The notes: a model not told the origin generated them from the letters alone. Shown: positions 1 through 64,000, counted from the stretch's first letter. The stretch is 64,000 nucleotides of DNA from Bilabrum cf. latius (GCA_965178125.1 OZ237749.1:992001-1056000), one strand, 5' to 3'. Translations and numbers: made by a program.

Positions 1-1262
1 CTCGCCCCGCCCGCCGCGGCCGCCTTGGCAGCAGCAGACGAGGACGAGGGCTTGAGGAACTGCTAGATCCACGGGTGCCTGGGTACACTGGATAGAGACA
101 GCCGCTGGCTCGGGTCCTTCTTCAGGAGCCGCTGCACGAAGTCCCTGGCGGCGTCTGAGACGTGCGCGGGGAACCGCAGGTCCACCTTGACGATCCTGCG
201 GTAGGTCTGCGTGTTCCCCGGGGCGTCGAAGGGGGGCTGCCCCACGAGCAGCTCGTACGCCAGCACCCCCAGTGCCCACACATCCACCTGGTAGTTGTGG
301 TCTTTGCCCTCGACCATCTCGGGGGGAAGGTAGTCCAGTGTCCCGCACAGCGTCCTGCGCCTGGAGGAGGGCGCGTGCACGGACCACCCGAAATCCGCGA
401 TCTTGAGCTCGCCCTTGTACCCCACCAGCAGGTTCTCCGGCTTGATGTCCCGGTGAATCACGTGCTTGGAGTGGCAGTACCGCAGTGCCCTGCTCAGCTG
501 CAGCACGTACGAGGCCGCCTTCCTCTCTGAGAACTTGCCCCTCCTCTGCAGGTCCTTGTACAGCTCTCCCCTGGGCGCGTACTCGAGGATGAGGTACACC
601 CTCTTCTCGTCCCAAAAGTACCCGTACAGCCGAAGGATGTTCCTATGCCTCAGGTTGGACTGGATCTCAATCTCCCGACGCAGCTGGTGCTCCACACCGG
701 ACTTGGTCAGCTGCCGCTTGTGGAGCACCTTGATGGCCACAATGTAGCGGTAGCGCTTCTCGCGGCACAAGTACACGTTTCCAAACTTGCCGCGTCCCAG
801 CGGCCGGCCAATATCGAAATCATCCAGGGTCCAACGTCTCTTGGGCTCCATGCCTGTGCCCCCACCGGTGTCGTCGCCTGCTGCTGCCTTGCCCTCGGCC
901 GCCCCAGCGGCATCGCTTGCAGCTGCACCAGATGGCATGGGTCGCAGCATGGCCGAACCGGATGAGGATGCCATAGCATCTTTTGCAATCTTAGATGCCA
1001 TGTCGGACGTATCTTCTGCTCGTTTTGTGGCACCACCGCTTGGAGCAGCAGCTGCAGCAGCAGTAGATCGGGGCAGCGACGGGGCTGCAACCTTACTCCC
1101 ATCTCGCGAAATATCTCCGGCATTTGCCTTCGAAGAAGAGTCTCCAAGAGCACATCTAGCAGGTTTATCGCTAGACGGTGCTGTAGTTGTGCCTGCAATA
1201 TGCAATACTGTCGCTCGAGCAAGAGTGCGCGGATGAGCAACTGGATGGATTTGGGTCGACAT
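1..1262 (-). CDS. Aurora-family Ser/Thr protein kinase (3' end runs off the window)
   Basis: ATG at 1262. Motifs: [69 protein letters not shown]. The TAG at 63-65 after HPWI is followed by an open frame (QFLKPSSS...) to the window edge. Confidence 0.95.
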
Positions 1263-1470
1263 TGCGATACTTCGCCGTTAGCCACTCACTTAATGCACTC
1301 ATAGTACTATGAATAAACGGTTTCCTGATTGTGGATTCTTGAGTACCAGTAGCAGAGGTACTTTGCAGAGTGGCGCGTATTGCCCAGAAAAACGGACCGA
1401 AGCGTATTTGAAACAGAACGCTACAAAGCAAGCGAGCGCGAAATACTTTACGCCCTAATTGAGAGCCAAA

Positions 1471-2773
1471 ATGGCCGCTGTTTCAGGGTCCAGTGGTGCC
1501 CTGTAGGAGAAAAGTAGCAATATCAGTCCATCTTCAGAGGACAAGTCAGAAGGAGCCGCACCTCCCGTTTCCAAGCCGGTGTCGCCGAACGACTTCGAGG
1601 TTGGCAAAATATTGGGAAAAGGCAAGTACGGAACGGTATATAGGGTCCGCTATAAGCCCACCAAGTAGACACTTGTACTTAAAACTGTTCTAAAGCGAGA
1701 GATTCTGGTAAGTGCAGCTTCAATCGCAATGCAGCTCAGCACTCTGGGCAACGGCTACCAACGTCAACTCTGTTGGATTTCCCTGTTCTTACCTTTGTCA
1801 AACGCAGGAGGATGGTGTCAAGCACCAGTTGCAACGTGAAGTTGAAATACACTCGCGCTGCCGACATCCGAATATTGTTCGCTTCAAGTGCTTCCTATAG
1901 GACAAGGACAGGCTGTACATGGTGCTGGAGTACTGCAACAAGGGAAACTTGTACGAGATGATGCAGAAGCAGGCCGACAAACGATTGAGCGAGGATACGG
2001 CACGAAACGTACTTGCTCAGTTAGTGTCTGCATTGCAGTATCTTCGGGAGAGCAAGCGAGTTCCAATTATCCACCGTGACATAAAGCCCGAGAATGTGAT
2101 GGTTTGCTACGACAAGGCCACGAAAAAAAGGACGTACAAATTAGGTGATTTCGGTTGGGCCGTGTAGCACGTCCCCAGCTCGGTTCGAGAAACGCTATGC
2201 GGCACGCCAGAGTACTTGCCCCCGGAGGTGGCCCAGTCGGAGCGGTACTCGGGTGGGTTTGACATCTGGACGCTGGGCATCTTGCTCTACGAGATGCTCG
2301 TAGGCAGAACCCCATTTTCCAGCGATAGTGACAGGGAGAGCCAGCACACGTTTGAGGCCGTCGCCGACCGCATCGTGCTCGGCAAATTCGAGGTCCCCAA
2401 GTGCGTTCCCAGCGGCGCCGCTGACCTGATCCGATCCATGCTGCGGCTGGACCCGGCCAAGCGCATCTCGCTCCGGGGCATCAGGGAACACCCGTGGCTC
2501 AGGGGCGCAGAGGGCCTCGAGGGTGCGGGCCCGGCGACAGCCGCCGCCGCCGGGAAGCTGGGTGGGGCTGGAAGTGGCTCGGCAGTAGTTGGGGCCTGTG
2601 CACCTGCTGCAGGGCCCGCCCCTGCATCTGCTCGTGCTCGTGGTGGCACTGAGGGCGCGAGCAAGGGTGGGTAGGAAGACGGTGCAGAATCCTCGACAGC
2701 GGGGCCCGAGGCCGGCGCTGCTGCGGGTAGTCCGGGGAGGAGTGCCGCGGGGGGCAGTGGCTAGAGCACGTGA
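1471..2773 (+). CDS. Second, divergent Aurora-like kinase (~400 aa; intron 1708-1807; several TAG=Gln)
   Basis: ATG at 1471. NDFEVGKILGKGKYGTVY; intron GTAAGT...[60 protein letters not shown] (*=TAG). Ends at TGA 2771-2773. Confidence 0.9.
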
Positions 2774-6143: not shown

Positions 6144-6508
6144 ATGGCTCTTGTTCCTGCTGCTAGGAACCCGTCGCATCGCCAATCCACGGCGTTCTGC
6201 CTTCAGTCGCAACGGCCGTCTGCTCGATTTGGCACGCTACTTCTCGACACAGAAATTAAAAATGGCCAACACAAATCAATCCCGGCAACGGGGGCCTTTT
6301 AAATATTGCCTCAATGTTTGGGTTCTTTTCTACTCCTGACACATCGAATGTGAGAGGGCGCACGTCATCTGTTACCGAGACGAGCCGCCGATCTTCGGTT
6401 GTTTCGCAGCAGTTGCACCTTGACGAGAGCGCACCAGTACAGCAAAAAAAGCAGGTGTCAGCAGTAAGCTCTGGTGCTCCGGCATAGGTTGGAAGTTCAT
6501 CGCTCCCT

Positions 6509-9500
6509 ATGAGATTCTAGAAATCGAATCCAGCCAATGTTGGGGGCGTGCGCATCGGCGACACACTTCACTTGCTTGACGATGCAACTGGGCTCGTTCT
6601 TGGAGCAGACGGGCTGCTGGCATTGAGCGTAGGGCTTGCTCGACCGCAGGCGCCCCCATCGTTGACAGCCTTTGAACTTGTATCGGCAACTGACGGCCCG
6701 CCGCCGGACCGCATGTTCGTCCCAAGGGCCACTGGCAGCTCTGGCTACGGTGCAGGGCAGGAATCCATCGAATCAAGCGACCCGAGCGGCGCAGCGGCCA
6801 TCTCGAGCGGATCTGGAGCCCGTGTTGACCTTGAGCTGCAGCGAATGGCGCAGTGGCCTCGATTATTAGCCTCGTACATCGAGCGGGTCGGCGCGTCCCG
6901 GCTGCGGGAGTCATCCCTTGACCGTGCCATGGCCAGGACATTGCGGTCGCACCCCAACATTTTGTCCATGGCAGTGGCATTCGAGCCAGGCGTGTTTTAC
7001 AAGGAAGAAGGCGCTACACAACCAGAAAAAGCGTACTGCAGGTTTGTCCTTAGGGAGGCCGGGTCAGGCGAGGGCGACGGCACGGGGGAGGGGGAGGGGG
7101 AGGTGTCATTTGCGTACCTTCTCCCTCCGTTCTACACCCCACTGTACTCCACCTGGCCCTGGTACCGCAACCCCAAGATCTCGGGAAGGGCAGAGTGGTC
7201 TCCTCCCTACGTGGACGAGGGCACCCCCAGGCCCATGGTCACATACAGCGTGCCCATGTGGAGGCATGGCGTGTTTGTGGGCGTCGCCACCATGGACGTG
7301 CTGCTAGATGCCAGCAGCACAGCGGGACAGGCCACGCTCACGGATGTTGAGAGCCCGGCTGATGCCAGAATGGCTGCAGGTGGACTTTCAGCCGGAAGCC
7401 GGGCAGCATCCACATCTAGCGATGCTGAAGGCATTGCGCAAGTGGGCCCAACTGAGGCGCAGGATGTGAAGGGGAGCGACGATGCGGATGGCGAGACACG
7501 AACGGCTGCACTGGAGCACTTGGAACAATTGGCCAGAGGACCTCGCAGGGAGGCGGCTCGCCTGGCAGGGGAGCTGGCCCATGTGCACGCGCCGGAATCG
7601 CACGGTGACGGCGACCCATCGGAGAGGGGAGCCTCTGCCGTCGGGAGTGACGCTCTGTTTCCTGCCGCAGAGCTGGAGAACACGGTGCGCTCGGTGGTGT
7701 AGAAAGAACCCCTGGCGTTTGGCAGCTGCATCGCGTTCGCTCCTGGGGTGTACCAGGGCCAGCGGTTGGCTAGTTTCTACACCTGTGTGGATGACGCGGC
7801 ATCGAGTGGGGCGGCGGCAGGGTCAGGGTCCGGTGGTGGTGGCGGTTCAACAGCCGTGCCGTCCGGGCAGAAGCGGCTGATCGACGTGATTCCTCTAGAC
7901 TACGACTTCACGAAAGACGACTGGTTCAAGCGCCCGATGCGAGACAGGCGAGACTATTGGAGCGAGCCTTACTTCGATGCAGGGGGAGGTGACATCTGGA
8001 TGGTGACATACAGCGCGCCCGTTCTGAATGCGGCGGGCATGCTCCTGGCAGTGGTGACCATCGATATCAGGTACAACCAGCAGGTCAAGGGATGGTTCAG
8101 AGAGGCTGAGGAGCACGGCGATGAAATCCAGGCTTGCGCTTCCTGCGGGCTGCCGTGCCCCGAGTCCTACTGGAGGTGGCCTTCCGACGGTACCCACGTC
8201 GGCGCGGGCGAAGGGGCGGAGGACTCGGTGTACTGCGACTGCTGCCTCCAAGGCGGGCTAGTGCACGATCCCTCCGCCTCCGCCTCGTCCTCGTCCGCTC
8301 TCTCCGAGCACGGGGAGGCGCCTTTGCTGGGGGGCACGGATATCCGCACTTCTCGAGCCGGGCTGCAGCATGTGAGCTCAGCCAGGTGGCAGGAATGGAA
8401 CACCCGCACTCGCAAGGTCCGCCGGCCGGTTCGGTACGGCCAGATCGTGCAGCTTCGAGCTATCGGCAGCCAGTTGCTGTTGTCTACGAAGATTTAGAAA
8501 CAAGCCTTTTCCACGGCAAGCGGGGGCTCCTCTGTTGCTGCTTGCACCCCAGAAGAGCTGCTGTGCGTGTCTAACGCCGCTGTGGAGCGAGTTGTCGATG
8601 GACGGCGGCAGCAGCGTTCCGCTGCGAGCCTCGCTTCAGCCGGCGCGGCTGCTGCTTCTGAGCGAGACGCGAACGGTAGCGACAGCCAGGTTCGTACGAA
8701 GATGGCTGCGCCCGGCCTGCCCGATTCTGCCCCGGCGCCCTCCACAGGCACATCAGATGCGCGAGACACGCGCGAGAGGGCCGGTGCTGCCACAGCCAGC
8801 GCCACCTCCGCATCCAGCCGAGATGTGCAGCCCCAAGGCACTGACGAGTCCAGCACCGGCCCGAGGAAACGGCGGGTCACTGCTGCCCCGAGCAAGTCAA
8901 GTTTAGTAGCATTGCAGCCGCTGCAATCGCAGGCTGAGGCTGGTGGCCGATCGAAGCAACCGCGGTCGATGAGTGCCCTGGAGGTTGCTCTGAGGACCCC
9001 TGGGCTGCAGGGGTTCGGTGCTGCGGCTGGCGGTGAGAGGTTGCACGGCGTGTAGCCTGGCAGATGGCGGGTGCAGACGGAGACCGGCCCCGACCCATAC
9101 ATGGAGGGCACTTCGGACACGTGGTTCGTGGTTTAGTGCGAGGGCAGGGCCGATGGGGAAGAGGTGAAGTGGGGGGATGCCATCTAGCTGGTCAGCCACA
9201 GGTGGCGGGCCCCGGTCGGCGTGGCGCTGCAGGGCGCCTCTGCTGGCGAGCTGCTGGGCGAGAGGGAGGCTCCGACGGAGGAAGCGGTCGTTGGTGCCCT
9301 CATCCGGGAGGCATCGATGGCGTCGGCGACGTCGGGGCAAGGGGAGGGGGTGCCGTTCAAGCCGTCTGTGTGGTACAAAGTGCTGGCATGGGCAGACAGA
9401 GCCAAGGGGAGGGTCAGAAGGGTCCCGAGGCCGCTGCCCAGGGCAGTCGGCATCGGTGTGCTGGCAGCACTGCGGGCGGGTACATACGCTCGGTCGGCGG

Positions 9501-12500
9501 CCGCAGGGGTGGCTGCAGCGACTGGTCCAGGCCAGTCTAGCAGGCGATCGAGCCTCGGCCAGGCCTCTGGGAGGGCCGCTGGTTCTATGACGACGGGTCG
9601 CAGTCCAGGGTTCGTCAGAGAGGAGGAGCATGGAGCAGTTGCCTCCACGCTCGGTCCTGCCTCGAGCCGCTGGCGCGTGGTCCGAGCAGCGAATCCGAAT
9701 GAGAGCGACACTTCGTTGGCAGCGGGAAACGGGGTGTGGGGGGCGGTTCTGGCGCCGTCGTTTGCGCGACTCGCGGCAGAGGGAGGCCGGCTGGTCGCTG
9801 AGCACGACGAGCTAAGGGGCGCGAGTCGACGGGGGAGGAGGGCAGTTCGCTTGCAGACAGGAGGCGCAGTGGCACAGCCGCTTCAAGAGGGGCCGGCGGT
9901 GTACTTGGATAACGTCTGGCAGCTCGTTCCGGTCGGAGCGCCAAGTGGCGATGGACCTGGATCTAGTGCAGACGTTCATTTACTGCATGCTGTGTCGGGT
10001 AGGTTTGTCTCCGTCTCTGGAGAGTAGATTGCCCTGGACCCCCGAGACAGTGACGATGCAGGTGGCGCGACGGGCAGTAGCAAAGACCCGGTGCAGGTGT
10101 TGCAAACGACCGCAGATGTGGATAATGCTGCCGTATTCACTGCGTGGCTGGCAGGGATTGAAACCCACGGCGCTGGCTCTGGAGCTGCCGGCGTGTACCT
10201 GTCCCACGTGCCTACTAGTATCGTGATGGATGCATCGGCACTGGGATCCCGCCCAGTGAGGCCGCAGTGGGTCACTGTAGGATCCCGTGGGAGCTTGTTG
10301 CTTGAATCAGACAGAGAGGCAGCGCTGCTGATTGAGTCTAAAATTGTCTCGCACCGATTCGGAAGGCCACTGCGGTTCTGGGTCAGTGTGCGAGACTCGC
10401 TGCTAGGGTGCTCTAATGTCATCCGGGGCATCCAGCGCCAGCGCTAGGCAGGCGGAGACTCGTCCATCCACCGAGCCGAACAGGTTCGGCTCCTACAGGC
10501 AGCGCTCGCCGGTGCGCTTCTCATCCATGACGAGATCTCGTCGGCTGAGCCGGCGGACGCGCACAGGGCCTCTGTGCTGGCCATCCGGATCGCCGACTTG
10601 ACTCGCTCCTAGCTGCAGCAAGACCCCGAGGGCGGTGGAGTGGCCTCTACCGGTGGGGGGTCGACCGTCTGGGACGCTGGCACGATGAGCGGCGGGGCGT
10701 CCTCATACAGTGATGAGTCTGACGCAGCGGTGCGAGCCGGAGAGCTCCGGAAGAGCCGTGACTTCACCTCGGATGATGCTTGGTGGAGAGTGGCCGTCCT
10801 GGCACGCGAGGAGCACGGGGGACTCAACCAGGCATCCATTGCGTTCTTCGCCGCAGCAGATGTGTTGTCTGTTCTGCTGGACCTCGCCGTGTTCGCCCTG
10901 AAATCCAGGAGCGCCACTGGTGGTTTTGGGGGCAAAGGTGCCGGTAGCTCCAACAGCGCCTCGCAGTCGACTACTGGCCATGCTCCCACTGTCAACAGCA
11001 GGGATGACACGGATAGAGTGGAAGCGGCCGTGGAGGACGAGGTAGCGAGGCGTTGCATCGCGGTTAGTCTGCACGTATGCAGCGCAGCCAGCTCTCTGGC
11101 GCCCTCGCTGGCTGCTGAGGTGGCACCCCGGGTGGGTCATCTGATGCAAGCGCTTTCTAGTGGCCAAGAAGCTGCCCTCTCCCGCTTGGCAGCTCGACTC
11201 GTGTCCTCAGTCATCTCTGTTCGACCCTCCACGTGCAGCTCGCTGGCATCTGGAGATGTCAGGCAGGTCGTGCAGCTGGTACTGTCCCAGCGCAGACTGT
11301 CGCATCGTCTCCTTGGGCTGCTCACGTCCATCAGCAGCCAGGCGTTCTTGCCAGGCGGGGGTCCAGAACGGTAGGTCAAGGAGGACTGCGGCGGCTGCAG
11401 CAGCGTGCACTGGGCAGCCAAGCTGGTCATCGACGGCTTGCTGCTCCGTGGGAGCCCGCCGTTCGTGCTTCGTCTGCTCTCGCAGGACCACCCCTTCTGG
11501 CTCGAAATGGCGGAGGCACGCGGAGACGGGGACCAGGGCGCGGATGCTGGTGTGGCGGGTGGATCCAGCGACAGGGCTGCGAGCCAGGGGGCCGTGCATC
11601 TGGATGAGGCAGGTGAGTTGGGGACGGATGCATCCCAGGGCGCTGCCCCGTCGTGCTCAGCGCAAGCGATGCAGACACTCCTCCGTCTGTGCCACCGCCT
11701 CTGCGTCGGCGTGTCTGGGAGGAGACTGCGGGGCGTGCTGTGCGGTGCTTCCATGCTGCAGCCCCGGGCCCTCCTCGACCTGGTCAGGGATGAGAGCCTG
11801 CCTCCCTCGGCATTCGGAGTGCGGTGCCAGCTTGCGCACCTCTTTCGGGTGCTCTATCTCGAGCCGCAAGCGGACTGGAGGTGCGGCATGCCGCGGGTTG
11901 TGGCTCAGGGAATACCGCAGTCGCCCAGCAGCGGGTCTGGGTCTGGGTCTGGGTCTGGGTCTGGGTTCAGTGCGCGCCGTGAGCCTCGTGAATCGCAAGG
12001 TACATTTGCGGTGGGCATGGTGCGCCCCTCTGAGCCCAGGGATGCCTGGACGGGTGGCCATCTCGGGGTCACGGAAGGGCTTGGAGTGTGGCGGAATGTA
12101 CCAGGACTTGCCGAGTCCACCGAGGTCAGCATTCTGGTGTACCGAGGGGAGACGATTGGAGAGGCTCGTGTACCGGCAGGGTCGGTGGGTTTCGATTCCA
12201 TACAAGACTTTCTCGTAACGTACCTGGCCCGGTGCTTGCCCATGGCGAACAAGAACGAGCTATCGATTGCGGTTCTGTCGTTGCTGTCAAGCTCACTGCG
12301 CCGAGGGCTGTGCAGCCAGCGGTAGGCAGTGGATCTAGTGCCATTCCTCGGTCAAATTCTTGCCGCGGAGCAGGACAGAGACGGTGTAAATACGAGCCGG
12401 AGCCAATACTTGAGATCTCAGATTTATCTCCATGAGATGAAGTTGATTGCGTGCCAGTTCCTGCACACGATGCTTGACGTGTGCATTGCAGTGCAAGCCG

Positions 12501-19453: not shown

Positions 19454-19580
19454 GATATGCAACTGTTGGCGATCAGTCCGCCAATGGATTGTGTGCCCGA
19501 GTCAACTCGTCACACAGCTACGAATCGAGCACAACGGCCAGTAGACTCTCTAGATCAACTAAACAACAAAACAGGCACAA

Positions 19581-21953: not shown

Positions 21954-22046
21954 GGCAGGCAACTTTGCGATCTGGTCATCAATCCTGGATCGGCGACCAA
22001 CGGCTCGCGACAGCCGGTTGCAACCATATCCCGGCAGCATCATCTG

Positions 22047-43525: not shown

Positions 43526-44027
43526 ACTTGGCCGAGGTGTGGAATGGAGAACCATATCGAATGGGTACGGTAATGTTTGTGCGAATCTGTATTATTCATC
43601 GAGATTTATCGCAGGCGTGCGGAATGAAGTCGGACTGGCACGCGCTGGAGAGGGGTGGCATGGCCCTACTGTTTGTCGCGCATTCGCGATGAGGTGGCTC
43701 TTGAGTTTCCACATACCCTACATACCAAACGACGCGACGCTGGCGCGATTCCAGCAACTCAGTAGTCATGGCTGCGATGCCATAGGGGTTCCTTCTAGAA
43801 GTGTACGACCATCTGTTTGGGACAACCTCACCGGTCGAGACCTCATGGGGTCAACGTGCGCAATTTGTTGCGAACGGGGTTGGGCCTCTGGGCTTCAAGT
43901 TGCGACCAAGACGGTCAAGCCGGTCTTGCGGTTGCAACCTTTTGTCGGTTCGCTTGGAAACAGCTAGCACACGGTCGCCCTTCGGACATTGCGTTTCGTG
44001 TCCCGTTTGGGTAGTGCAGGATAAAGT

Positions 44028-50000: not shown

Positions 50001-50615
50001 GGCGGGTGGGGCCCCGGAGAGGCGCCTCTGCAGCCCGAGTTCCACCACGGTCAGGAGGCTACACAAGTACATGAAGTCAGCGATGCTGAAGGTCGCGGCC
50101 GCGAGTATGACGTCGATGTAGAAGAAGTTGGTGCGCATGGCAGGGGCATGCAGGGAGGTCATCAGCTGGACTCTGTGTCGGAGCCCGGGAGCGATCCCGC
50201 GGAGGGCACTGCTGCCCTTGCTCCTCGGGGTCCTGCACGTGAGGACTCCGATTCCGCGGCAAGGGAGGCAAAGCCGCGGCCGGGGCCCCCCGCCCGTCGC
50301 AGGAGTGTTCCACGGGTGCCCTCAGGGCCCAGAATCCCCTTCTAGTCCGACGAAGACGAGCAAGAGCAAGAGTTGGACAACTCCAGAGGTGCCGCACAGC
50401 CGCAAGAGGTCGAGGGGGCAGTGGCGGGGTCTACTGGGGGATCGTCCCGCACGAGCTCTAGCCCGGGAGATCAATCCAGTGCCAGAGAGTTCGGGTCTTC
50501 GTCGCAGTACGCGGGGCAGGATGGGCTGTACTACCCGCCCAGCTTGCCCACAGCTCTACTTGGGGGTGGTGGATCAGAGGATCAGGATACTGGCGAGGAC
50601 GAAGGAGACGCGTGA
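44028..50615 (+). CDS. Large low-complexity/coiled-coil hypothetical protein (~2,161 aa; intron 44100-44201) with ELTF(R/K)P motifs
   Basis: Seven listed ORFs share one frame, separated only by TAG. ATG 44028, GTAAGT...CAG intron, TGA 50613-50615. Motifs ELTFRPKIN, ELTFKPRT and ECTHTPIV suggest a cytoskeleton-associated protein (inference). Confidence 0.72.
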
Positions 50616-50697
50616 TTCGGAGTCCGGACTCCGGATCGTATTAGTATCTGATTTGGGTTTTGTGTGTACGCCAGTATAACTAGATCTCTGTCCGCGG

Positions 50698-52242
50698 TCA
50701 GCTTGTTACGTTCGATCCGGATGCTACGGGATCCTCACCACCCGGGTCGTGCGATGCGCTGGACTCCTTGGGAAGCCCCGCAGCAACTGCGACGCCATCA
50801 AAGCCCACACGGCACACCTTGGCACCTGCAAGCCGGACCCCACACTGCAGTCCGTGCAGCACATCCTCGGGCCGCCACTCAGGGCTCGGCCCGCCACCCC
50901 AGCCCCTCTCCCGCAGCCCACCTTCAGGCGCCCCACCCTCACCTGGGGCGGCGGCACTGGCAGCCCCCCCGCCGGCATCGCCTGCCGGTGCCTCCGCTTC
51001 TCTGTGCCTCGCCTACCACAGGCCCCAGATGCACCCCGCAATGAACGTGTCACCTGCACCCACCGTGTCTACGGGCTCGCCGCCTGCTGGGAGCCAGGCC
51101 GGCACATGCATAGCCCCTGCCAATGCCTCGCTCCTTCCGCGGCCACTGGCGGCGCCTGGCGCACTCGCATTCTCGGTCGAATCACCCACCGAACAACCGG
51201 CTGCAGCATCATCCGTTTCTTTGGATGGACTGTCAGGGACTCGCAGGCCCACTGCGCCCCTGTCGCCCCACGTGGTCACCAGCAGCGCGCCTGCTCTGCA
51301 TCGAGGCACCAAGTACTCCGCCAGCGCCTCAACCTTGGTGTCGCGCAGCAGCGCCGACTCAGAGGAAACGGTGCTTTCACTTGATGCAGTGGGTGCGCCT
51401 GCTGCGCCCTGTTCGCCCCCCGCTGCCGCTCTCCACGGCCCCAGCTGCAGCAAGTTCCCAAGCTCCTGGGGCGCGATCACCACATCGGCGAGGGCCACCA
51501 TCTGGTCTGCCAGCGGGCCCCTGTCCTTCTCCACCTCCAAGGATATGATGGGGTGGGTCTTTGCTTGGTCATGCTTATACGGCTCACCAGAAGCTTCGTC
51601 AACAGCCTTCAAGTTGCTTGTCTGCAACGCTCGCAGGAGCCGCATCATTGGCAGGGTCTCCTTGGCGTTGCGGCACTCGAAGTGGATCCAGTCCATGGAC
51701 TGCACGCCCCGACAAAGTGCCGAGAGCTCCATCTATGGCAATGCCTTCACGCCCACAGGACCCAGTTTCCTACCCAGGTCTGGTCTGCCCAGTATCTCCC
51801 TGCTAGCGATGCCGTTCGAATCTACGTCGTCTTCACCACGCAGCAAGTTCCTCGTGAACTGTTCCAGCGTGAGCTCAGGTAGATCTCGATAGTGAAGTAT
51901 GGTTCTGGACTTCGTTCTGGAATTCGATATGATCCACGACGTCGGCACGTGCCCACAACCTAGTATTGTGCAACCTGCAAAATCAACACGGTGCTTTACC
52001 AAGTCTTCCTGTATCAGTCGCGCACCGGGATCCCCTGAATCTTTTGCAAGCATAACGCCGATCCATCTTGCCTTCACTGCAGGCAGTTGAGCCGCAGTAA
52101 CTAGCGTGTTGGTAGCATTCCCCCCCCTCGCTCGCCGGATGGCTTTTACTCTGGTCTCTGTATCTTCTACTGGGTACCCATCAACCTCTTGAATAACATC
52201 AATACATGCAATACCAACACACGCTAATCTGAATTCTTCCAT
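50698..52242 (-). CDS. Ketohexokinase-like PfkB carbohydrate kinase (~514 aa)
   Basis: ACVGIACIDVIQEVDGYPVEDTE, RGGNATNT, SRTILHY, DWIHFECRN, ISLEVEK, VDTVGAGDTFIAG. Past a TAG comes the KHK-like end CGVRLAGAKVCRVGFDGV; TGA stop. Confidence 0.88.
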
Positions 52243-52347
52243 TCGCGGTGTAAGCGCACGATACTGTACCAGAGCGGTCGTTGAGATTGCAGTTGCTGTT
52301 TGCGTAGCGAGATGCAGCGACACAGAGATTATGTATTACGGATTCAA

Positions 52348-54567
52348 TCACTCCGTTGGGGCGTCCCACTACGTCCGTCCATCCTTATGAGCGTAGAAGG
52401 TATCCCCGTCGTCATCGGTCACTTTGGACCATCCCTCGGGCAGATCTTCCTTGTCCCCGTCCTCGTCCCCGTCCGCCGCATTGGCTAACGGTGCTTCCCA
52501 CTATGTATCTCCATCTTCGTGCACGTAGAACGTATCACCGTCCTCGTCTGTCACCTTGGACCACCCCGGCAGCAGCTTCTCTTCCTCGTCGCCCGGCTCC
52601 TCCTTATCTCCTGCCTCCTCTCCCTCTTCCTCCCCGTCAGCCATCGGGGGGTCCCACTGCGTCCGTCCGTCCTCATGCGCGTAGAAAGTGTCCCCGTCGT
52701 CATCGGTGATCTTGGACCACCCCGGGGCAAGCTTGACTTCAGCCCCTTCCCCTTCCCCTTCCCCTTCCCCTTCCCCTCCGTCCCCCGCGCTCTCCTTTTC
52801 TTCCTTGTCCTCGTCTTCCTTGTCCTCCTTGCCGGGGTGGTGGCTCATGCTGTGAATGCGACCCCTGGCCCCCTCCACCTCCCCCGCCCCTCCCCCCACG
52901 GCCCCTCCTGCAGCAGCCTCCCCGGGAGCCGTCGCATCCTCCGGGATCCCCGTCACCTCGTCCTTGCCCCCGGACCAGCTGGGCTCGCCCGCGGGTCGCC
53001 CCGGGAGCGCCTCGAGCTTTGCCTCGCTCACCACCGTAGCAGGGGGCTTGCTCGGGTCCGCGAAGCCCGGCCTGCCCTTGCGTTCCGACGCCCCCGACCC
53101 CTCTGCCTGCGCCATGATCTCCGCCACGTTGAGCTCCAGCGCCGCCTCCATGTGCTGCGCCTGGTCGCTGACCACGTACACGAGGAACGTGTCCGCCTCG
53201 TCCTTGACCTTGAGCGCAAACACCTTCTTGTCCTTGGACAGCGTCCACGAGTCTATGTCCACGAGGAGGTGCTGCTCCAGCGCCAGAGGGTCCTCCATCC
53301 CGGTGAGATGCACCCCGTCGTGGCTCACACCCACCGTCACGTCCTCGGTTCGCTGCCGCACCACGGCCTCCGACGGCTTGGAGTTCATCGTCTTCCAGGT
53401 TCGCTTGCCCACGAAGAACTGGGCCCCGAACGCGACAAAGTCCTTGGACACCTCGACGAACTCGCGCTCCGCCGACAGCCGACTCACCCCCTTCAGCTTG
53501 CGCCACCGCCCCAGCACCAGGTCGGCCGCATCCGACTTGCTCACTGCCTCCGCCCTCGACCTCCCGACGTGGCGGAACACCTACGTGCACCCGTGCGGCA
53601 GGCCGGCCACGGCGCCGGCCGCCTGTTTCTGCGCCGCAAGTGCCCCCTCTTTCCCCGCCCCCGCCCCTGCCCCCGCCTTCTTCGGGCCCTTCAGAGCCGC
53701 TCGCGTGGCTCTGTCCGCCGCATCGGGCGCGTCCCGCAGCAGGTAGGCAGGCACGAGGTCCTCCATCAGCGGGGTCACCACCTCGGGGCTGTCGCGGCCC
53801 TCCTGGAAGTCGCCCCTGCGAGCCTGCAGCAGCAGCGCCGACAGCAGCGTGGCGACATCCCTGGGGAACCTGTGCGAGCACTCCAAGAAGTGGAACTGGC
53901 ACTCGGCGAACACCACCCGGTGGTAAGGGTCCGACGTCGACGTGGCAGCGTCCTCGCGCTCGTCCACCGGGCCATCTGGCTGATAGCTTCTTCGCTTGAA
54001 GTAGAGCCGCCGCTCTCCTGCGCAGCTTGTACGATGAATGCAGATACGTCAATGGTATGATCGGTACCGTGGAGCAAGCTGCGATGACCTGTGCTTGGCA
54101 CGCGAGCATGTCAAAGCGCGCGAATGTTGAGTGCCTCTGAAGCTCACCATTAGCAACATCAGAGGCTGTCCACTTGCGAAGAACAGACTACATTTTGCTA
54201 TCATCTCGCAGAAGGGATAATACTCCACGGTAATAATCCATAAGGCCGTATTCGTGATCTAGTGAAATGTCTAGCTGCGAGAAAACGCCAAACGAAGTGA
54301 CGAGGCACTGGCACGACTTGAGCGCAACTGAAGCTACCTGGCTTTAAACATAGACTCGCATAATAGTGCCGCAAATGCTGCTGCCAATGGCGACGGCTAG
54401 TGCAATCGGTAAGGCAGTCTCACCTTGTCTCGAATTGCAACGCATAAGTCTCCTACGTTGGCTTCTGGCTTCACCGAGACCGTAAAAACCGTACCGTCCA
54501 GTAAGTACACAGGAATTTCTGTGCCAGAGGCTACCAGCTGGATCGAACCGCTTCCAAACAGTGCCAT
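52348..54567 (-). CDS. FERM-domain protein with three C-terminal WW repeats (~646 aa; introns 54275-54423 and 54018-54147)
   Basis: F1: VYLLDGTVFTV...IRDK|LDISLDHEYGL, RLYFKRR. F2: DVATLLSALLLQARRGDF, DLVPAYL. F3: FGAQFF, VGVSHDGVHL. WW repeats of the form LxxGWSK(I/V)TD(D/E)DGDTFYxHxDGxT(Q/*)W(D/E)xP; TGA stop. Confidence 0.88.
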
Positions 54568-54834
54568 GCCGACGGTCTAACTGGGTCAGGTATTGGCGTC
54601 CCAAGCAGGATCTACGTGCCAAACGTAAGACCAAGCAAGTGCAGCGATGATTCTTGAATTCAATGCACAATATCTATGTACACCTCTAGTGATACGCCCG
54701 TACAGACCCTTCAAGGTACAACCCAGCAACGGATTGCGCCGCGTGGATTCGCCGGATCGAACTTTTGAGGTTTTAATCTTCTTCTTGAAAGTTCAACACG
54801 CTACAAAGGACCTCTTGCAAACCCCCCGCCCTAA

Positions 54835-55426
54835 TCAGTCATTTCGCGCACGTTTCGCAGGCCTGGTGTCAGCACTCTACTGAGAAACCTTAACCACTGC
54901 ATGCTCCGCGTTCACGACATTCCTGAAGTTCGCGGGACTAAGTGAAATTGACGGCATCACACCATCCTCATCTCGATCATCATCCTTTAGCTCAGACAGA
55001 CTGGACAGTTCTTCCGAGAACCGTCTTCGCTTACTTGCCTTCGGTCGCTTCCACTCACCAGCTTCGGCACCATCCTCGCTCTGCTGGCTCGTACTTTTGA
55101 GGTTGCGACCGGACCGGCGTTCGAACCTCCGAGTCGCTCGACGACGGCCGGGGCGGGGCTTGGTGAGAGGCCGCCACCAAGTCAAAAGCATGTATCTTGG
55201 AAAGACCTAAAACCATGCCAGCGTAGACATGGGCTGGGGCCTTAGCCAGCGTCAGCATCCCCACGGTTCCACCCCGGACCCGCCCGCCCGTGGAGAAGGC
55301 CTCGAGCCTCCGAGCCAAATTAAACGCCTGCAGCAGGTGATAGAGCGATTTAACAGCGCTCACCTTATCAATACTCCATCTCAGCACATGTTTTCGATCG
55401 AACCCCGCCACCACATTGCGCCCCAA
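54835..55426 (-). CDS. Possible small intron-containing hypothetical gene (5' end unresolved)
   Basis: Charged, protein-like frame (KRPKASKRRRFSEELSSL...) reading through one TAG to TGA 54835-54837; candidate intron 55207-55363. No homology recognised. Confidence 0.3.
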
Positions 55427-55773
55427 CCTCTGCCTTCAGGCCTGGCTCGAGCCATGCCGGGTGAAGCCTGCCCGTGGAGGTGCAGGTCGGGTCACGGTGC
55501 TCGACCTCAGTGCGCAGTGGGTCCAGCTCGTTAGCCACCTGTATCCGATGAGCGGCGGAGTACCTGTGGCAGTGTAGCCGCCTCCATGGGCCACGGTCAC
55601 CCGCGTCTGCACTCGCCCTGCCGCCGCGCGTCGCCGGCTTTAATCGCGTCGCCGGTTGCAACTGCGTTTTCGCCCATTTTTGCGCAGTTGACACGTTGCC
55701 TGCGAGCTCGTGTTCGCCAGAATCTTGGCTTCGATTCTTTTTTGGAGGACACATACAAGAGACTGGAGTCGTC

Positions 55774-57624
55774 ATGGCAACCGTAGCGGAGCACCCGCGG
55801 CAGCGCGGGGGCCAGCCCAGCCACGCAGCTTCTGCAATCCAAATCTCAGGGTCCTACTGCTGCTGCTGTTTATGCGGTCTTGCCGGCGCCCACCACGCGT
55901 ATCTCGGTCGTTCATGGTCGGCCATTCTATCGGCGATGTCTTGCAATCTGTTCGGGTGCGGTTGGATTGCTGACGGCTTCTTGATCCCTCAGTACGCAAC
56001 TGTGCAGCAGCAGCAGCGGTGGGAAGCGTACCATGAGCGTGATGCAGTACCAGAGACTGACACAGCTACAGAAATAGTGCAGCGGAAAAAATCAGGCGTT
56101 CCATTCGACCTTCACGAATCCTTCCTCTACCGATGCATGCTGCTGCTGACTGCGCTGAGCTGGGCCCCTCACATTCCCTACCAATTTGTGTATGGAGAGG
56201 CACTCGCAGTGATGGGAAGCAGCACATACCGACCAGATGCCTAGGCCCGAGAGATAGCTCAGGCCGGGGCCGCTGCAGTGGCAGGGATGGTTGCGGCGCT
56301 GATCGCAGTGGCCGCTTGCTCCGCGGGGGCGCCCAAGCGCAGAAGTACGACCGCGCTGCTCGCTCTGTGCGCAATCGGTGCTGCGATTGGGGGGTTTGGC
56401 CGCATGTACGGCAGCTATTGGGGCCTGCCAGGGCTATCTGCCTCGGAGGGCAGAGGGGCGGGATCGGTCCAGGGACTTGGAGGCAACGAGACAAATGGGG
56501 GTGAGGACGATGGCGAGGGAGAGGGAGAGGGAGAGTGGGAGGGGGATGAGGAAGAGGACGACTGGGGCCCCGGAGCGGATCCTGCCCCTTTCGTCTTGCT
56601 GGCGCTTCCAGCCGTGCTCGTGCTGCTGGCAGGCTGCTGCCTGCCCCTAACGTGCAACCCCTTCCCGCCCGCCTTCCAGTGGGACAAGACGTCCGCACCG
56701 GTGGCACAGGGCACTTCTGGTGTGCCAGTGGAAGGGAGGCGCAAGCAAGAGGTAGATGATGACCCGCCGACCCAGGGCAGCAGCGCCGAGGGAAGATCAG
56801 TGGAGGAGGAGAAGGAGAAGGAAGAGGAGGAGCAGGTGGAAGAGATCCGGTGGGCGGGCACGAAATTAGGCGAGCTGCCGAGTGACGGCCCCGTGGCGGG
56901 CTGTGCGCGCGTGATTCTGCTGCTATCGCTTGCCGGCATGTGGTGGGGCATGTCCCTGTGGGTGCTGGTGCGAGATGCACCCATCCGTGTGCCCCTAGAA
57001 GCATGTGACGAGCGCGTGCATCCCCAGTGGCGCGTGTCCGGCGATTGGGACGAATCAACAGGTGCGTTCGAGGAGGACCAGTGCAGGACGTACGTGGGTG
57101 TGCTGGCGAGGAGGTGGGCCATGGAGGTGCCCCGCGGCGTGGCCTGGGTGTATGCCCACTGGAGCATCCTGTACGAGTCCATCTCCGAGGGTCTGCAGGA
57201 CGAGGCTGGGATGGAGGCCAGGCACCTGCAGGAGCTGGGTCTGGAGGAGGGCGCCAGCTGGGGCGCGGTCAAGAAGGCCTACAGGGGACTGGCTAGAGAG
57301 CTGCACCCGGACACTGCGGGCAGGAAGAGGGGCGGGCAGGGCGAGGAGGGGGATAGCAAAGAGGATAGGCTGGCTCGGTTCCATCGGGTGAGGCACGCCT
57401 TTGAGGAGCTGCAGGTGCTGCGGGGGCAGGGGGGCAGGCATGGACGAGGGGCGGAGGAGGAGGAGGAGATGGGGGCGGGAAAAGGTGCCAGTGGAACGAG
57501 ACAAAGGCAGTGGCGGGCGAGTCAGCGCGGAGGAGGAGGCAGAGGCAGAGGGAGTAGGAGAAGCAGGGCGTCAGGAGGCGGTCGGATGGGGCGGGGTGGT
57601 GGGGGACACGGGAACGAGCTGTGA
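55774..57624 (+). CDS. Multi-pass membrane J-domain protein with N-terminal TM2-like domain (DNAJC22/Wurst-like architecture), copy 1 (~616 aa)
   Basis: TM2-like GLAGAHHAYLGR...LFGCGWIADGFLIPQY. J-domain LGLEEGASWGAVKKAYRGLARELHPD...RFHRVRHAFEEL. One TAG; ends GNEL-TGA. Confidence 0.82.
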
Positions 57625-59239
57625 TGGAGGGTTGGCTTGGAGCCTTAACATAGCGCGAGAATCACTGCTAGAACTTTTGCACCTAGATCTAGCGACTTGC
57701 CGCTGTAATGTGTGACCATGCCCAGCCAGCACACTCGTCATCGCACCCCCGTGGCTGCTGCTTTCACCAGGCACACAAAGACCCCTACCGAAAGCACTCT
57801 GCAGGAGCTGCTATTGCCTTGAGTTTATTGTTGACAAGATTGGCAAGCTGATATTCGTATGCCAGTGGTTGCTCCCGTTCGCTGCTGCTCGCGAGAGTTA
57901 TGCAGCAGGTGCGCCCAGTCACCGGCCCTCTGTCTTGATAGTTGCGCCCCATGCTGCTGCTGCATAGCGTGTGGGGCGTGCGGTGCCCACCATGCGTACA
58001 TAGGCAAGTCGTGCTCGGCTGTTGTTGCGGCCACCACATGCAATTTCTGCTTGATCGGCTGGTTGAGCGACGGGATCGCACTTGAGAAGCACGCCATCGA
58101 GATGGCGATGCTCAGGCATCTATCGATGCCAAATTGCTTTTACGACGAGCTTAATTATAATGATGAAACGATCGCCTTCGATAAGTTGCGAACATTGCAC
58201 ACGCTATACGGTCGTAAAGATTCCTCTCTATTGTGGAGCGTGCTGGCGCTTGCTGTTGCGACTTTCATATCTGTGTATGCAGGTATGATTGTGCGTGGTG
58301 AGATCATATCGCTGATTGACGCAAATCCCTACGATCCTGGCGTTTATTCGATGTGGGTGTCCGATGTGGTGGCTGCTGCAACGACGGGTGGTGTATCGTC
58401 AGCACTCTCTTGCGCATTTGTGATGGCCGGTCTACCGAGGGGGTATGAGCAGTACCGTGTAGCGAGCCATATGAGTACTATTGCGCTTATGTTTGGAGCA
58501 GGGCTTGGAATCTGCATTGGATGGCCAGGACTGCTTAACACAGGTGTCGATAGACTGCTAACAGCGAGCACTAGCGCTTCATCCCACAGCCAATTTGCAG
58601 CACAAGTGATTGCCTTTGTCATTCCACTTATTATTTTGGGCATAAGCTGCTGCTTGCCAAATCGGGGCGAGCTCGAATCTGAGCCGCAGAGCTGCATCCA
58701 AAAGTGGTGCGTGAATCCGTTCACACCCGCTATTCAGTGGGATATGCATCGGATGGGTCCTCCGGACGAAGAGAGGTACATTAACAGGAACAGTAGCATG
58801 GCAGTCGACCGCGAAGCCGTGCTCGGGGCAAGAATTGGCGAGGAGGATGAGTACGAAGATGTTGCACCCGGCCTCCGTCTGCGCAACGCGAATCCTAGAC
58901 GTCGAGGCAGAGATAAGGGCACAGAAGAAGACCCGAGCGCATTGCACAGAGATACTGAGTTCGAGATCCGGTGGGCCGGTACACCGCACGAAGAGCTGCC
59001 TGCGAGAGGTGTGGTCGCGGGGTGCCGGCGCGTGCTGCGGGTGCTTGCATTCGGGGTGCTTTGGTGGGGCATGATTCTGTGGCAGGTTGTGCGGGATGTA
59101 CCCATCCGCGTGCCCCTGGAAACGTGTGACGAGCGCGTGCATCCCCAGTGGCGCGTGTCCGGCGATTGGGACGAATCGACAGGTGCGTTCGAGGAGGACC
59201 AGTGCAGGACGTACGTGGGTGTGCTGGCGAGGAGGTGGG
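57004..59239 (+). repeat. 115-bp near-identical block shared by the two J-domain paralogues (57004-57118 and 59125-59239)
   Basis: tgtgacgagcgcgtgcatcc...gcgaggaggtggg is identical except for one substitution (57057 a / 59178 g). Confidence 0.92.
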
Positions 59240-59658
59240 TGCTGGACTGGGACACAGCGCGGCTGGCCTGCTTGCTTCCTCTGTCTGGCTGCAACTCGCG
59301 CGTGGACATGCCTGGGCAGGGAGCAGATGTGCACCTGCATGTGCTGAACCTAACCAGGAATGCCAGCTGGGAGCAGGCCCGTGAGAAGTATCTGGACCTG
59401 TCCTAGACACAACATCCCGAGGTAAGGCGGGATGCCAGTGGACAAGACGCTGGGAATGGCACTCATGTGACGGACGAGCCAAGGTTGAAGCAAGTGGAGG
59501 AATACCTCCGGGTGAGGCACGCCTTCGAGGAGCTGTGGGTCCTGCACGACCTGGGCATCTTCGGTGCAAGCCGAGACGACAGCAAGAAGCGATCGGGTGG
59601 CATGAGAACCGAGTAGGACGGGGTTCCCGAGTCGCCTATCGATCGGGGGGAGCTATGA
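57859..59658 (+). CDS. Tandem paralogue of the TM2+J-domain protein, copy 2, HPD changed to HPE (~599 aa)
   Basis: GACGAHHAYIGK...IGWLSDG, EIRWAGT, PIRVPLETCDERVHPQW, LNLTRNASWEQAREKYLDLS*TQHPE...RVRHAFEEL. Ends RGEL-TGA. Confidence 0.82.
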
Positions 59659-62184: not shown

Positions 62185-62743
62185 ACGCAAATACCATTCA
62201 TCGGATCCTCAAATTCCACGGATGCTCGCAACGGAACATATCATCTGTTCTAAAATCAATTGCACTCAACCAAAAGAAGAGACCGCATACAAGAACATTT
62301 CGGGCCAGCCCCTCATCTGGTTGCCCAGCTGCATGAACAGGCGCCGGCTCTGCGACGCAGACACGTGGCTGCTGGGAAATCACCCAGTCTCCGCCCCACT
62401 CCTGTTTACAGAGGAGGCATGGGCGTCATCGACAAGCAGTCCGTTGGCTCGATCGCACCGACCGGTGGAGAACACCGACTGAACCAAGCAAGACATTCCA
62501 GCGCTCCCACAGCGACATCCACATGGACGCCCAGCTGGCGCTAGGATTCACAAGGCTCCTTGCGGCCGTCCATGCTGCGTCTCCTGCTGCGCCTCTCTCT
62601 GGTCACTCCCCGGCTCCTCAGAGGAGTCCTCCATGCCGCCCCACGAACTCAAATACGAACACCTGCCGACACAGACAGAGACGGTCGCTGAAATCAGCAT
62701 CACGAACTCCATTTCCCGACATTTCCCCACACGTTGCTACCTA

Positions 62744-64000
62744 TCAGTGCCACCATCGAGATATCTCGCTCCCACTGTCCTTGCCATCATATCCCATTAG
62801 CTTTGGCTCTCCGTCATGGATCTCCAGAGCCACCGCCCACACGTCGTCATGGTCCCACAACGACTCACCATGCTTGTCAACGACGTGCAGCACCCCTCTC
62901 ACGTCAAAGATCAGCGTGTACGGCCCCTCTCCCTCCCCGTACGTCCCGGTGTGCCAAACAGACTCCCCGTGCTTGTACAGCACCAGGTTGCCATCTCTCT
63001 GCATCTCCAGCCGCACACCGCTATCCACATGCGACCGAAGCGACTGGCCCTGGAGCAGCCGCTCACCGGGGAACATGGTTATGTGAACACCACCATGCTT
63101 CTTCGGCAGAACCTCCTCACAGTCCTAGTGGGCCTTCGGGTCGCACAACACGTCTCCTGGCTGGTAGTTGAGGCCGTCGAGGTCCGAGTTCCAGGTGCCG
63201 TAAAAATCCCAAGCCCCTATGCTGTTGAAGTTGTTCGTCCTGGTTGCCCAGATCCACTCCCCTGTGTGCCGGTACAGCACCACATTTCCATCAGACTACA
63301 CATCAAGCCTGTCAACAGGCCGTTTGGTGGAGCCCTCGATCCTCCACTTGACGTCCAGCTTGTTCTCGCCAAGGACCATGAGATCACCGTCCCCATCAAG
63401 AAGCAACGTGTGCGGCTGGTTCACCCCGTCGACGTGGTACTTGTCGCTGTCGTCGCTGCTGTCCCACAACGCCACGGTCTTGCGGTCACTAAATCCCCAC
63501 GGGTCGTAAGTCTCGTACAGAACGAGGTTGCCGTCGCTCTACATGCGCAGGTCCATGTCGTGCCAGTCACCGTCGTCGTCCGTGATGCCGTGCCTCCTGA
63601 GCGCGAACGGTGAGGCGATGCCCTGCCCCCTGCGTAGGTTGTCGTTCACGTCCTGCGATCGTATATCGCACTGCTCCATGTTGGTATTACTGCAGTCGTC
63701 TCGAGAGCGTGTACTGCTGGCACCGACACCAACTTGCAGCAGCGCGTCTGCCACCTAGTCCTGCTATGGACCAAACACCTTTCGCAAGGACTTCAGGGTC
63801 AGCTTCTTGGTGATCGTGTTCCTAGACTTGCGCAGCAACTTCATGCCCAGCTTTGACGCAAGGGTCTTGACCACGTCAATACCAGCCACCCGCTGCTTCT
63901 TAGCACGCTTGATGATTGACTTGAGAACATCTTCCTGGACGCCTCCAGCGTTTTTGAGCTGAGACACCAACTCTTGCTGCTGCTACTTCCCAAGACCCTC
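62744..64000 (-). CDS. Bulb-type (B-type/GNA-like) lectin-domain protein, 5' end outside the window
   Basis: Three QxDxNxVxY motifs: LRM*SDGNLVLY, LDV*SDGNVVLY, LEMQRDGNLVLY, each followed by W-x-S/T. The frame is open from the window edge to TGA 62744-62746. Confidence 0.88.

Follow-up and report, generated by a model that had tools for sequence, protein, structure and literature searches.

Evidence that UAG encodes glutamine, with UAA and UGA retained as stops, in a GC-rich, intron-bearing stretch of eukaryotic DNA

We find that UAG is very probably read as glutamine in the nuclear code of the organism from which this 64-kb stretch of DNA (the window) derives, and that UAA and UGA still act as terminators, which is the assignment of NCBI translation table 15. 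The GC content of the window is 63%, and it represents nuclear DNA of a GC-rich, gene-dense, intron-bearing single-celled eukaryote, in whose cytoplasmic translation UAG would be decoded as glutamine and UAA and UGA would lead to termination. An earlier reading made from the sequence alone had proposed this code; all three of its parts, TAG as sense, TAG as glutamine, and TAA and TGA kept as stops, survive the tests performed on the window, and two environmental relatives add independent support. The window is a further case of a known code in which UAG alone has moved to glutamine, unusual in having TGA as its main stop.

Throughout 17 coding frames, comprising 18,541 codons of the window, TAG occurs in frame 98 times, while TAA and TGA are never found internally; most genes had already been described as same-frame ORFs parted by TAG alone. 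Read as glutamine, TAG makes up about 11% of all glutamine codons (98/861). A stop-to-stop scan with TAG as sense yields frames of 3889, 3074 and 2141 codons, all free of internal TAA and TGA, against a longest frame of 1000 codons under the standard code. If TAA alone or TGA alone is treated as sense, the longest frames have 1000 and 1132 codons respectively, which is no comparable gain. The longest frame is that of a giant channel gene (6260-17929, plus strand) with Cache/PDC sensor domains, an RIH_assoc domain and an ion-transport domain, which ends in TGA. The sequence-only reading had rightly noted that this gene lacks internal TAA and TGA, but its count of 24 TAG falls one short of the 25 that we find in the 3889 codons. 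In the two off-frames of the gene the counts are 23 and 27 for TAG, 11 and 8 for TAA, and 58 and 92 for TGA. Next in length are a ubiquitin-plus-kinase gene (23867-33091, minus strand; 3074 codons, TGA end), where the 18 in-frame TAG agree with an earlier estimate of about 18 in some 3,000 codons, and a frame without known family (44190-50615, plus strand; 2141 codons, 17 in-frame TAG, TGA end).

The same pattern recurs outside the window. Two metagenome contigs, L001 and L002, whose products are 49-60% identical to the channel protein over the aligned part, carry 22 in-frame TAG in 1953 codons, with neither TAA nor TGA in frame. The UAG code is thus common to at least two divergent environmental relatives. 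Together the 64-kb window and 6.2 kb from these relatives form the evidence base, and a sample of this size is compatible with rare TAG stops or rare sense TAA.

Wherever TAG falls in a strongly conserved column, that column is glutamine. In the ubiquitin-plus-kinase gene, the TAG at 28379-28381 (minus strand) occupies Gln31 of ubiquitin, as had been claimed, and aligns to the Q in 'kakiQdkegipp' of polyubiquitin (PDB 8q7r_U). The GHNxxF-Q site in the RIH-associated region of the channel (15434-15436, plus strand), likewise named beforehand as a conserved glutamine, shows Gln in 59 of the 61 homologs that align there and Lys in the other two, and is CAG in L002. For a second channel motif, RD-Q-xx-Q-V, the TAGs at 17597 and 17606 are present, but the columns turn out not to be conserved for glutamine, which stands there in 24 of 142 homologs and in 15 of 141, respectively. 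A TAG is also present in the channel frame at 9134, in a WFxx-Q motif; the region around it gave no Pfam match and no match in PDB (0 hits).

Repeated motifs within single genes point to the same residue. The WW repeats of a FERM/WW gene read CAG/TAG/TAG ahead of their second Trp (repeats 2 and 3 at 52369-52503, minus strand, with TAG at 52501-52503 and 52369-52371), and copies of a B-lectin motif, TAG-S-D-G-N-x-V-L-Y in two cases (63296-63541, minus strand, with TAG at 63539-63541 and 63296-63298), read TAG/TAG/CAG. Both the 'TQW' of the WW repeats and the QxDxNxVxY of the lectin had been singled out from the sequence, and both hold. Directly past an Aurora kinase domain, a TAG in the context HPWI-TAG-QFLKP (63-65, minus strand) corresponds to Q in a relative (P0302) with 94% identity. 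A series of 33-residue tandem repeats (33122-36514) has units without TAG, and is therefore uninformative on TAG/CAG swaps.

Could TAG instead stand for one of the amino acids seen in other recoded lineages (Glu, Lys, Arg, Tyr, Leu or Ser)? Most TAGs lie in variable columns, and Glu, Lys or Arg form the majority at several of them. For the channel C-terminus, queried with 8 TAGs of which one has no alignment to homologs, 6 of the 7 aligned TAG columns have Arg, Glu, Lys, Ala or Ser as their majority residue. At the column of one TAG in the second kinase, all 120 Aurora homologs have an aromatic residue or His. In PDB alignments of the two kinases, TAGs are found at variable positions or in an insertion, and are therefore not diagnostic. 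Against another amino acid stand the conserved columns, the exchange of TAG with CAG among paralogous repeats, and the likelihoods. Ortholog pairs between the window and its two relatives include 32 that involve TAG, two of them TAG-TAG; among the other 30, the partner is Gln in 10, followed by Lys, Ala and Gly with 3 each. A BLOSUM62 likelihood on these pairs places Gln ahead of Arg by 10^4.7, and a Codetta-like sum over 9 columns of distant homologs gives log10 values of +1.62 for Gln, -0.87 for Lys and -1.0 for Arg, a lead of about 10^2.5. A meaning other than glutamine is therefore extremely improbable.

That the TAGs are an artefact of pseudogenes or assembly errors, or are lost through splicing or RNA editing, has next to no probability. 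Two TAGs do indeed lie within an intron: those at 43370 and 43343 in the frame of the CTP synthase gene (41102-43600, minus strand), from which removal of two GT..AG introns (42668-42868 and 43235-43396) leaves a clean 686-residue protein. Introns in the window are however few (102-234 nt) and map elsewhere than the other TAGs, the frames are interrupted 98 times by TAG and never by TAA or TGA, and the relatives that repeat this come from other samples. Furthermore, 16 in-frame TAGs fall inside pieces of spliced transcript contigs from runs X5, X6 and X7 that are identical to the DNA, without a single differing letter, and so these TAGs are neither spliced out nor edited. The sequence-only reading had named transcripts with TAG spliced or edited away as one observation that would count against it, and the TAGs in these contigs are retained and unedited. 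We take X5-X7 to be RNA runs by inference from their GT..AG splice joints, across which DNA contigs of run X1 continue. Such joints are seen for an intron at 40431-40664 (minus strand; X5 and X6, spanned by an X1 contig), for a pair of introns in the FERM/WW gene (54017-54146 and 54275-54423, minus strand) and, in the 2141-codon gene, for a GT..AG intron at its 5' end (44100-44201, plus strand). Of the 17 TAGs of the latter gene, 12 are inside transcript contig pieces that do not differ from the DNA. Across one DNA run and three runs of spliced transcripts (three studies), the pieces listed carry the same letters throughout; none of the five variant places listed in the contigs is a TAG codon.

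The retention of TAA as a stop calls for separate consideration. With the end of a frame taken as the first in-frame TAA or TGA, the 16 frames examined have 14 TGA and 2 TAA ends. By this construction none can end in TAG, and the absence of TAG ends is partly circular. The sequence-only reading had counted 16 TGA and 3 TAA; TGA dominates in both counts. Under the ciliate-type code 6, TAA and TAG would both be glutamine, and in-frame TAA would be missing merely due to a GC-rich genome. TAA is in fact scarce, with 147 occurrences on the plus strand of the window against 395 of TAG, and of the only two TAA ends among the 16, the one at 36917-36919 (minus strand; end of a 1188-codon frame, 36917-40483) is non-discriminating, because a TGA comes 18 codons later, still within the transcript, whose contigs stop about 130 nt beyond the TAA. 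Yet A-ending codons are not so rare: CAA accounts for 20.6% of CAA+CAG, and GAA and AAA for 19.7% and 14.2% of their own pairs. If TAA were glutamine, about 25 in-frame TAA would thus be expected beside the 98 TAG; none is observed, the chance of which is 0.794^98, or about 1e-10. The relatives, which are less GC-rich and in which CAA makes up 33-38% of CAR, have no TAA beside their 22 TAG. Moreover, both off-frames of the channel gene contain TAA, and after stops it is denser, at 5.7 per kb in the following 120 nt versus 2.3 per kb overall. The remaining TAA end (18194-18196, minus strand) closes a GH56 hyaluronidase-like gene (18194-19501); if it were read as sense, the frame would gain 254 codons that lie antisense to the channel gene, at its conserved 3' end. 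Finally, TAA closes the channel ortholog on L001, and does so at the homologous C-terminus, 7 residues past the last aligned residue. No in-frame TAA used as glutamine was found in the 17 frames of the window or in its relatives, and code 6 is highly unlikely.

Very unlikely, too, is a context-dependent code, in which TAG would be sense inside genes and a stop near the 3' ends of mRNAs, or its variant in which TAA is unassigned or avoided. Ends defined by TAA or TGA would miss a terminating TAG slightly upstream, and three frames do have a TAG at most 14 codons from their end: the second kinase (3 codons ahead of the stop), TM2b (residue 594 of 607) and the FERM/WW gene (residue 560 of 566). 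Conservation continues past a TAG near the 3' end in two cases, the third WW repeat and the Aurora tail. The last TAG of the WW array sits 7 codons ahead of the TGA stop and precedes a conserved Trp and Pro, with CAG in the sister repeat, and must therefore be read; the Aurora tail, QFLKP, is conserved in the 94% identical relative. Avoidance of TAA is countered by the TAA codons at which the GH56 gene and the channel ortholog on L001 end. Nor does the window resemble the Condylostoma type, where all three stops are sense in frame and position sets termination, as no in-frame TAA or TGA was found. The transcript contigs end 60-130 nt past three of the frame ends, which is a weak hint only.

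The preferred reading, UAG as glutamine with both other stops retained, would require a tRNA-Gln with a CUA anticodon, pairing with UAG but not with UAA, together with an eRF1 whose N-domain would refuse UAG yet still take UAA and UGA, going by established knowledge (PMC5304391). No tRNA with a UUA anticodon would be expected, and the eRF1 change would be expected in the GTS, NIKS or YxCxxxF motifs. A tRNA scan found no tRNA genes in the 64-kb window and none in L001 and L002, an Rfam scan of the window returned no matches, and the window does not contain an eRF1 gene.

Which organisms share this code? The fornicate Iotanema spirale has the same table, with UAG as glutamine and UAA and UGA as stops (PMC5304391). 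UAG is a minor glutamine codon in both (about 8% there, about 11% in the window). No gene of Iotanema spirale ends in UAG; the ends in the window are by definition TAA or TGA. The two differ in their main stop, which is UAA in Iotanema spirale (104 UAA and 15 UGA among 119 complete ends; PMC5304391) and TGA in the window (14/16), and in the material, a transcriptome in the former case and intron-containing genomic DNA of 63% GC in the latter. The sequence-only reading had called UAG-only reassignment rare, with Iotanema spirale as its example; the example is correct, but the list of cases is longer, since PMC11687900 adds the ciliate Protocruzia tuzeti and two occurrences in phyllopharyngean ciliates. 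In these lineages, like in the window, UAG is sense and UAA is still a stop, a pattern attributed to a CUA-anticodon tRNA that is unable to read UAA. The five recoded phyllopharyngean genomes, where UAG is Gln or Leu, use UAA to end 86.9-98.3% of their genes, a prevalence argued to lock UAA as a stop (PMC11687900); in the window UAA is the minor stop. Other split codes described there differ in the meaning of UAG, which is Leu in the rhizarian exLh, Ser in Scotinosphaera, and Glu in Oligohymenophorea sp., where UAA is Lys, so that as in the window UAG and UAA differ (PMC11687900). Code 6 lineages, among them hexamitin diplomonads, many ciliates and some green algae (PMC5304391), share UAG as glutamine but also use UAA as sense, while the window has no internal UAA in 18,541 codons.

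Within openly accessible main texts, we found no report of UAG as glutamine for a GC-rich eukaryote outside the ciliates and fornicates. The 63% GC of the window, its chromosome of at least 64 kb with multiple genes, and its introns of 102-234 nt would be unusual for a ciliate macronucleus. The Aurora kinase domain matches Aurora kinase B-A chains in PDB with an E-value of 6e-127, and the window proteins are slowly evolving, which would be atypical of fornicates. Phages with TAG recoded to glutamine (code 15) have the same assignment on paper and need either a suppressor tRNA of their own or a host; these are viral, in contrast to the cellular housekeeping genes with spliceosomal introns seen here.

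As for the affinity of the organism, CTP synthase has its best named matches, at about 60% identity, in the stramenopiles Bicosoecida sp. ms1, Cantina and Cafeteria. In a FastTree tree of 49 of the 120 matches (the best 39, together with those that have names), the window groups with environmental sequences inside a stramenopile-dominated cluster; with sampling biased to the top matches and support values unread, this is only a weak stramenopile lead. Named matches of the Aurora kinase come from diatoms, Triparma, Pythium, red algae and animals, a scatter that gives no placement. A scan of genome contigs with the channel alignment found no relative, and a TM2/DnaJ paralog (57835-59655) had no match in the protein collection, not even itself. 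Tentatively, and with slightly less than even confidence, we suggest that a hitherto undescribed clade, neither ciliate nor fornicate and possibly stramenopile, reassigned UAG to glutamine on its own; it would comprise the window organism and environmental relatives of about 50-94% protein identity, and would terminate mainly with UGA.

Nuclear code changes outside ciliates have been recorded in just a handful of lineages, and differing meanings of UAG and UAA are rarer still (PMC5304391, PMC11687900). Being GC-rich and having TGA as its main stop, the window therefore tests the argument that near-universal UAA ends keep UAA a stop. If an independent, UGA-terminating clade exists, the split between UAG and UAA would not depend on a dominant, 'locked-in' UAA, and a cultured organism with DNA and RNA data would be at hand for finding the tRNA-Gln(CUA) and the change in eRF1. 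The public DNA and transcript data for this organism make tests on tRNA, eRF1 and peptides feasible. Meanwhile, the standard code, if applied in annotating this genome or metagenome contigs related to it, fragments genes. The protein library contains short fragments with 56-93% identity to the channel, and these look like pieces of genes cut by such annotation.

Reading TAG as a sense codon yields stop-to-stop frames of 3889, 3074 and 2141 codons (6260-17929 (+), 23867-33091 (-) and 44190-50615 (+)) that carry 25, 18 and 17 TAGs, while the longest frame under the standard code has 1000 codons, and no comparable lengthening is obtained when TAA alone or TGA alone is made sense. Across 17 coding frames, or 18,541 codons, we count 98 in-frame TAGs with no internal TAA and no internal TGA, which bears out the earlier proposal of TAG as a sense codon. 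Within the 3889-codon channel gene, TAA occurs 11 and 8 times and TGA 58 and 92 times in the off-frames and neither occurs in frame, whereas TAG is equally common in frame (25) and off frame (23 and 27). There is therefore no selection against TAG in frame, while TAA and TGA are wholly excluded. The sequence-only reading was right about the lack of TAA and TGA in this gene; its TAG count of 24 was not.

The window has a G+C content of 63%, and its eukaryotic genes are tightly packed on both strands. Families assigned by Pfam comprise an Aurora kinase (3-1277 (-)), a second kinase (1712-2773 (+)), a C2HC zinc-finger protein, the channel with Cache/PDC sensor domains, a RIH-associated domain and an ion-transport domain, a GH56 hyaluronidase-like protein (18194-19501 (-)), the 3074-codon protein with ubiquitin and a kinase domain, CTP synthase, a pfkB kinase, a FERM/WW protein, two TM2 paralogs in tandem (55552-57624 and 57835-59658 (+), with a DnaJ domain detected in the first only) and a B-lectin protein. 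A tRNA scan found no tRNA genes in the 64 kb, and no Rfam family was matched there. The GH56 match (PF01630 at 2e-41) lies in a protein whose C-terminus holds an EGF-like module, and its family is mostly known from animals.

As judged by sequence comparison, the residue at strongly conserved positions with TAG is glutamine in every case. Ubiquitin Gln31 is TAG at 28379-28381, and of the 61 homologs aligned at the channel column GHNxxF-Q (TAG at 15434-15436) 59 have Gln, the other 2 having Lys. The codon before the second Trp of the three WW repeats is CAG, TAG and TAG, and that before xDGNxVLY in the three lectin motifs TAG, TAG and CAG, where solved lectins share a Q-DGN-V-Y motif. These four sites had all been read as glutamine beforehand and stand as such; the RD-Q-xx-Q-V TAGs, also taken for conserved glutamines, fall in variable columns, and neither Pfam nor the PDB gave a match over the WFxx-Q TAG at 9134-9136. 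Furthermore, the closest Aurora relative, at 94% identity, has Q opposite the TAG of the window, with QFLKP conserved thereafter. A Codetta-like sum over nine columns of distant homologs gives +1.62 log10 for Gln, -0.87 for Lys and -1.0 for Arg. Against glutamine, the majority residue in 6 of the 7 aligned TAG columns of the channel C-terminus is another one (Arg, Glu, Lys, Ala or Ser), and opposite one TAG of the second kinase all 120 homologs have an aromatic residue or His.

Scanning metagenome contigs with the channel C-terminus produced two loci. In L001 (2462 nt, 54% G+C overall) a frame of 703 codons includes 8 TAGs, and its product is 60% identical to the channel over 684 residues; in L002 (3752 nt, 56% G+C) the frame runs to 1250 codons and includes 14 TAGs, with 49% identity over 1165 residues. 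Neither frame contains TAA or TGA. Between the window and these loci, 32 aligned pairs include a TAG from one sequence or from both, two of them being TAG-TAG; opposite the other 30, Gln occurs in 10 and any other residue in at most 3. A BLOSUM62 likelihood over the TAG pairs places Gln 10^4.7 above the next residue. Since the genes of both loci are written alike, the code belongs to a clade and not to a single strain. Graded environmental relatives exist for the Aurora kinase (94, 85 and 78% identity) and for channel fragments (56-93%).

Removal of the TAGs from the mRNA by splicing or editing was looked for by comparing the contigs of four runs with 36601-56600. Contigs of one run (X1) are unbroken across the whole interval and are therefore DNA. 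Those of X5, X6 and X7 skip stretches bounded by GT..AG (CT..AC where the gene is on the minus strand), which marks them as spliced transcripts; these three runs belong to two other studies. The introns lie at 40431-40664, 42668-42868, 43235-43396, 54017-54146, 54275-54423 and 44100-44201. The listed transcript pieces differ from the DNA by no letter and no gap and retain 16 in-frame TAGs from four genes, and none of five listed variant places is a TAG codon. As the TAGs are unchanged in spliced transcripts, neither splicing nor editing removes them. Two TAGs of the first CTP synthase frame are intronic, and after splicing this gene encodes one clean protein of 686 residues without any TAG. 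Runs X1-X7 have this sequence in common under three coded organism labels in three studies, with no differences in the listed pieces; this is either one strain under differing labels or an organism carried along with other cultures.

Could TAA also encode glutamine? Going by the A-ending share of comparable codons in the window (CAA 20.6%, GAA 19.7%, AAA 14.2%), some 25 in-frame TAAs would be expected beside the 98 TAGs, where none is observed (0.794^98, about 1e-10). In L001 and L002, which are less GC-biased, CAA makes up 33-38% of CAR and no TAA stands beside 22 TAGs (0.65^22, about 8e-5). TAA does occur where it can do no damage: it is found in off-frames, and its density in the 120 nt past stops is 5.7 per kb, compared with 2.3 per kb for the window as a whole. 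Frames end in TGA in 14 of 16 cases and in TAA in 2, which agrees with the earlier statement that genes end in TGA or TAA, mostly TGA, though not with its counts of 16 and 3. For the GH56 gene the TAA makes a convincing stop, because reading through it would extend the frame by 254 codons that run antisense to the conserved end of the channel gene; the TAA at 36917 does not settle the matter, since the next TGA is only 18 codons away. On L001 the channel ortholog has its TAA 7 residues past the last aligned residue, and the gene of the window its TGA 15 past it. TAA and TGA remain stops, as had been proposed, being absent internally and closing frames. With 64 kb to judge from, TAG may still serve as an occasional stop, but two cases argue against termination that depends on position: in the FERM/WW gene a TAG 7 codons upstream of the stop must be read to obtain the second Trp and the Pro of the third WW repeat, and the Aurora tail downstream of its TAG is conserved. 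Transcript contigs end 60-130 nt beyond three stops, which is at most a faint sign that 3' UTRs are short.

According to PMC5304391, UAG is read without UAA by a CUA anticodon only. Because only this anticodon spares UAA, a tRNA-Gln(CUA) derived from tRNA-Gln(CUG) would be expected, together with a glutaminyl-tRNA synthetase that accepts it and an eRF1 that would lack affinity for UAG and keep its recognition of UAA and UGA, all by extension from the same source. For the eRF1 N-domain that source lists the motifs GTS, NIKS and YxCxxxF and positions 55, 69 and 70 (human numbering). Such a tRNA, synthetase and altered eRF1 would most likely be the working basis of the code.

The best named matches of the CTP synthase are stramenopiles at about 60% identity, a quick tree of this protein gave no resolved placement, and Aurora kinase matches are scattered across taxa. 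Set against the general background on ciliates, and against Iotanema, for which PMC5304391 reports UAA as the principal stop (104 of 119 complete ends), this organism stands apart in its high G+C, in its long DNA that carries many genes and introns of 102-234 nt, and in having TGA as main stop (14/16). These contrasts make it unlikely that it is one of the described cases, though they are no phylogeny. UAG-only reassignment to glutamine is already reported, according to PMC11687900 from Iotanema spirale, Protocruzia tuzeti and twice in phyllopharyngean ciliates, and the one real difference here is the dominance of UGA over UAA among terminators. Searches of openly readable main texts turned up no report matching this organism.

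Near its N-terminus the channel has a pair of ligand-sensor domains of the Cache/PDC type (PF22673 at 2e-34; PF02743 at 6e-13), and their fusion to a RyR/IP3R-type channel (RIH_assoc and ion-transport domain) is an unusual arrangement; its full-length relatives, of 2816-4329 residues, are environmental proteins only. In the 3074-residue protein, a near-canonical ubiquitin unit lies mid-protein at residues ~1540-1615, preceded by Gly-Gly-Gly, and the protein ends in a split kinase domain. The frames 22047-23879 and 19581-22046 (-) share a reading frame with a single TGA (22047-22049) between them, and are probably two genes ~90 nt apart. In the gene at 33122-36514 (-), where third-position G+C is very high (0.86), a 33-residue (99-nt) unit recurs in tandem as 26 nearly identical copies; the gene's Pfam RhoGAP-FF1 match, with no single significant stretch, looks like a repeat artefact. 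The word depth of DNA-run contigs reaches ~1500 and ~300 at 45939-46605 and 54610-55276, compared with ~8 elsewhere, and numerous contigs are interrupted at these places. Both stretches are high-copy repeats, and one falls within the coding frame of the 2141-codon gene. A homolog search with the second TM2 paralog gave no match among 5.8 billion proteins. A block of ~38 residues (CDERVHPQW...VLARRW) is identical between the two TM2 paralogs, the remainder having diverged, which suggests gene conversion.
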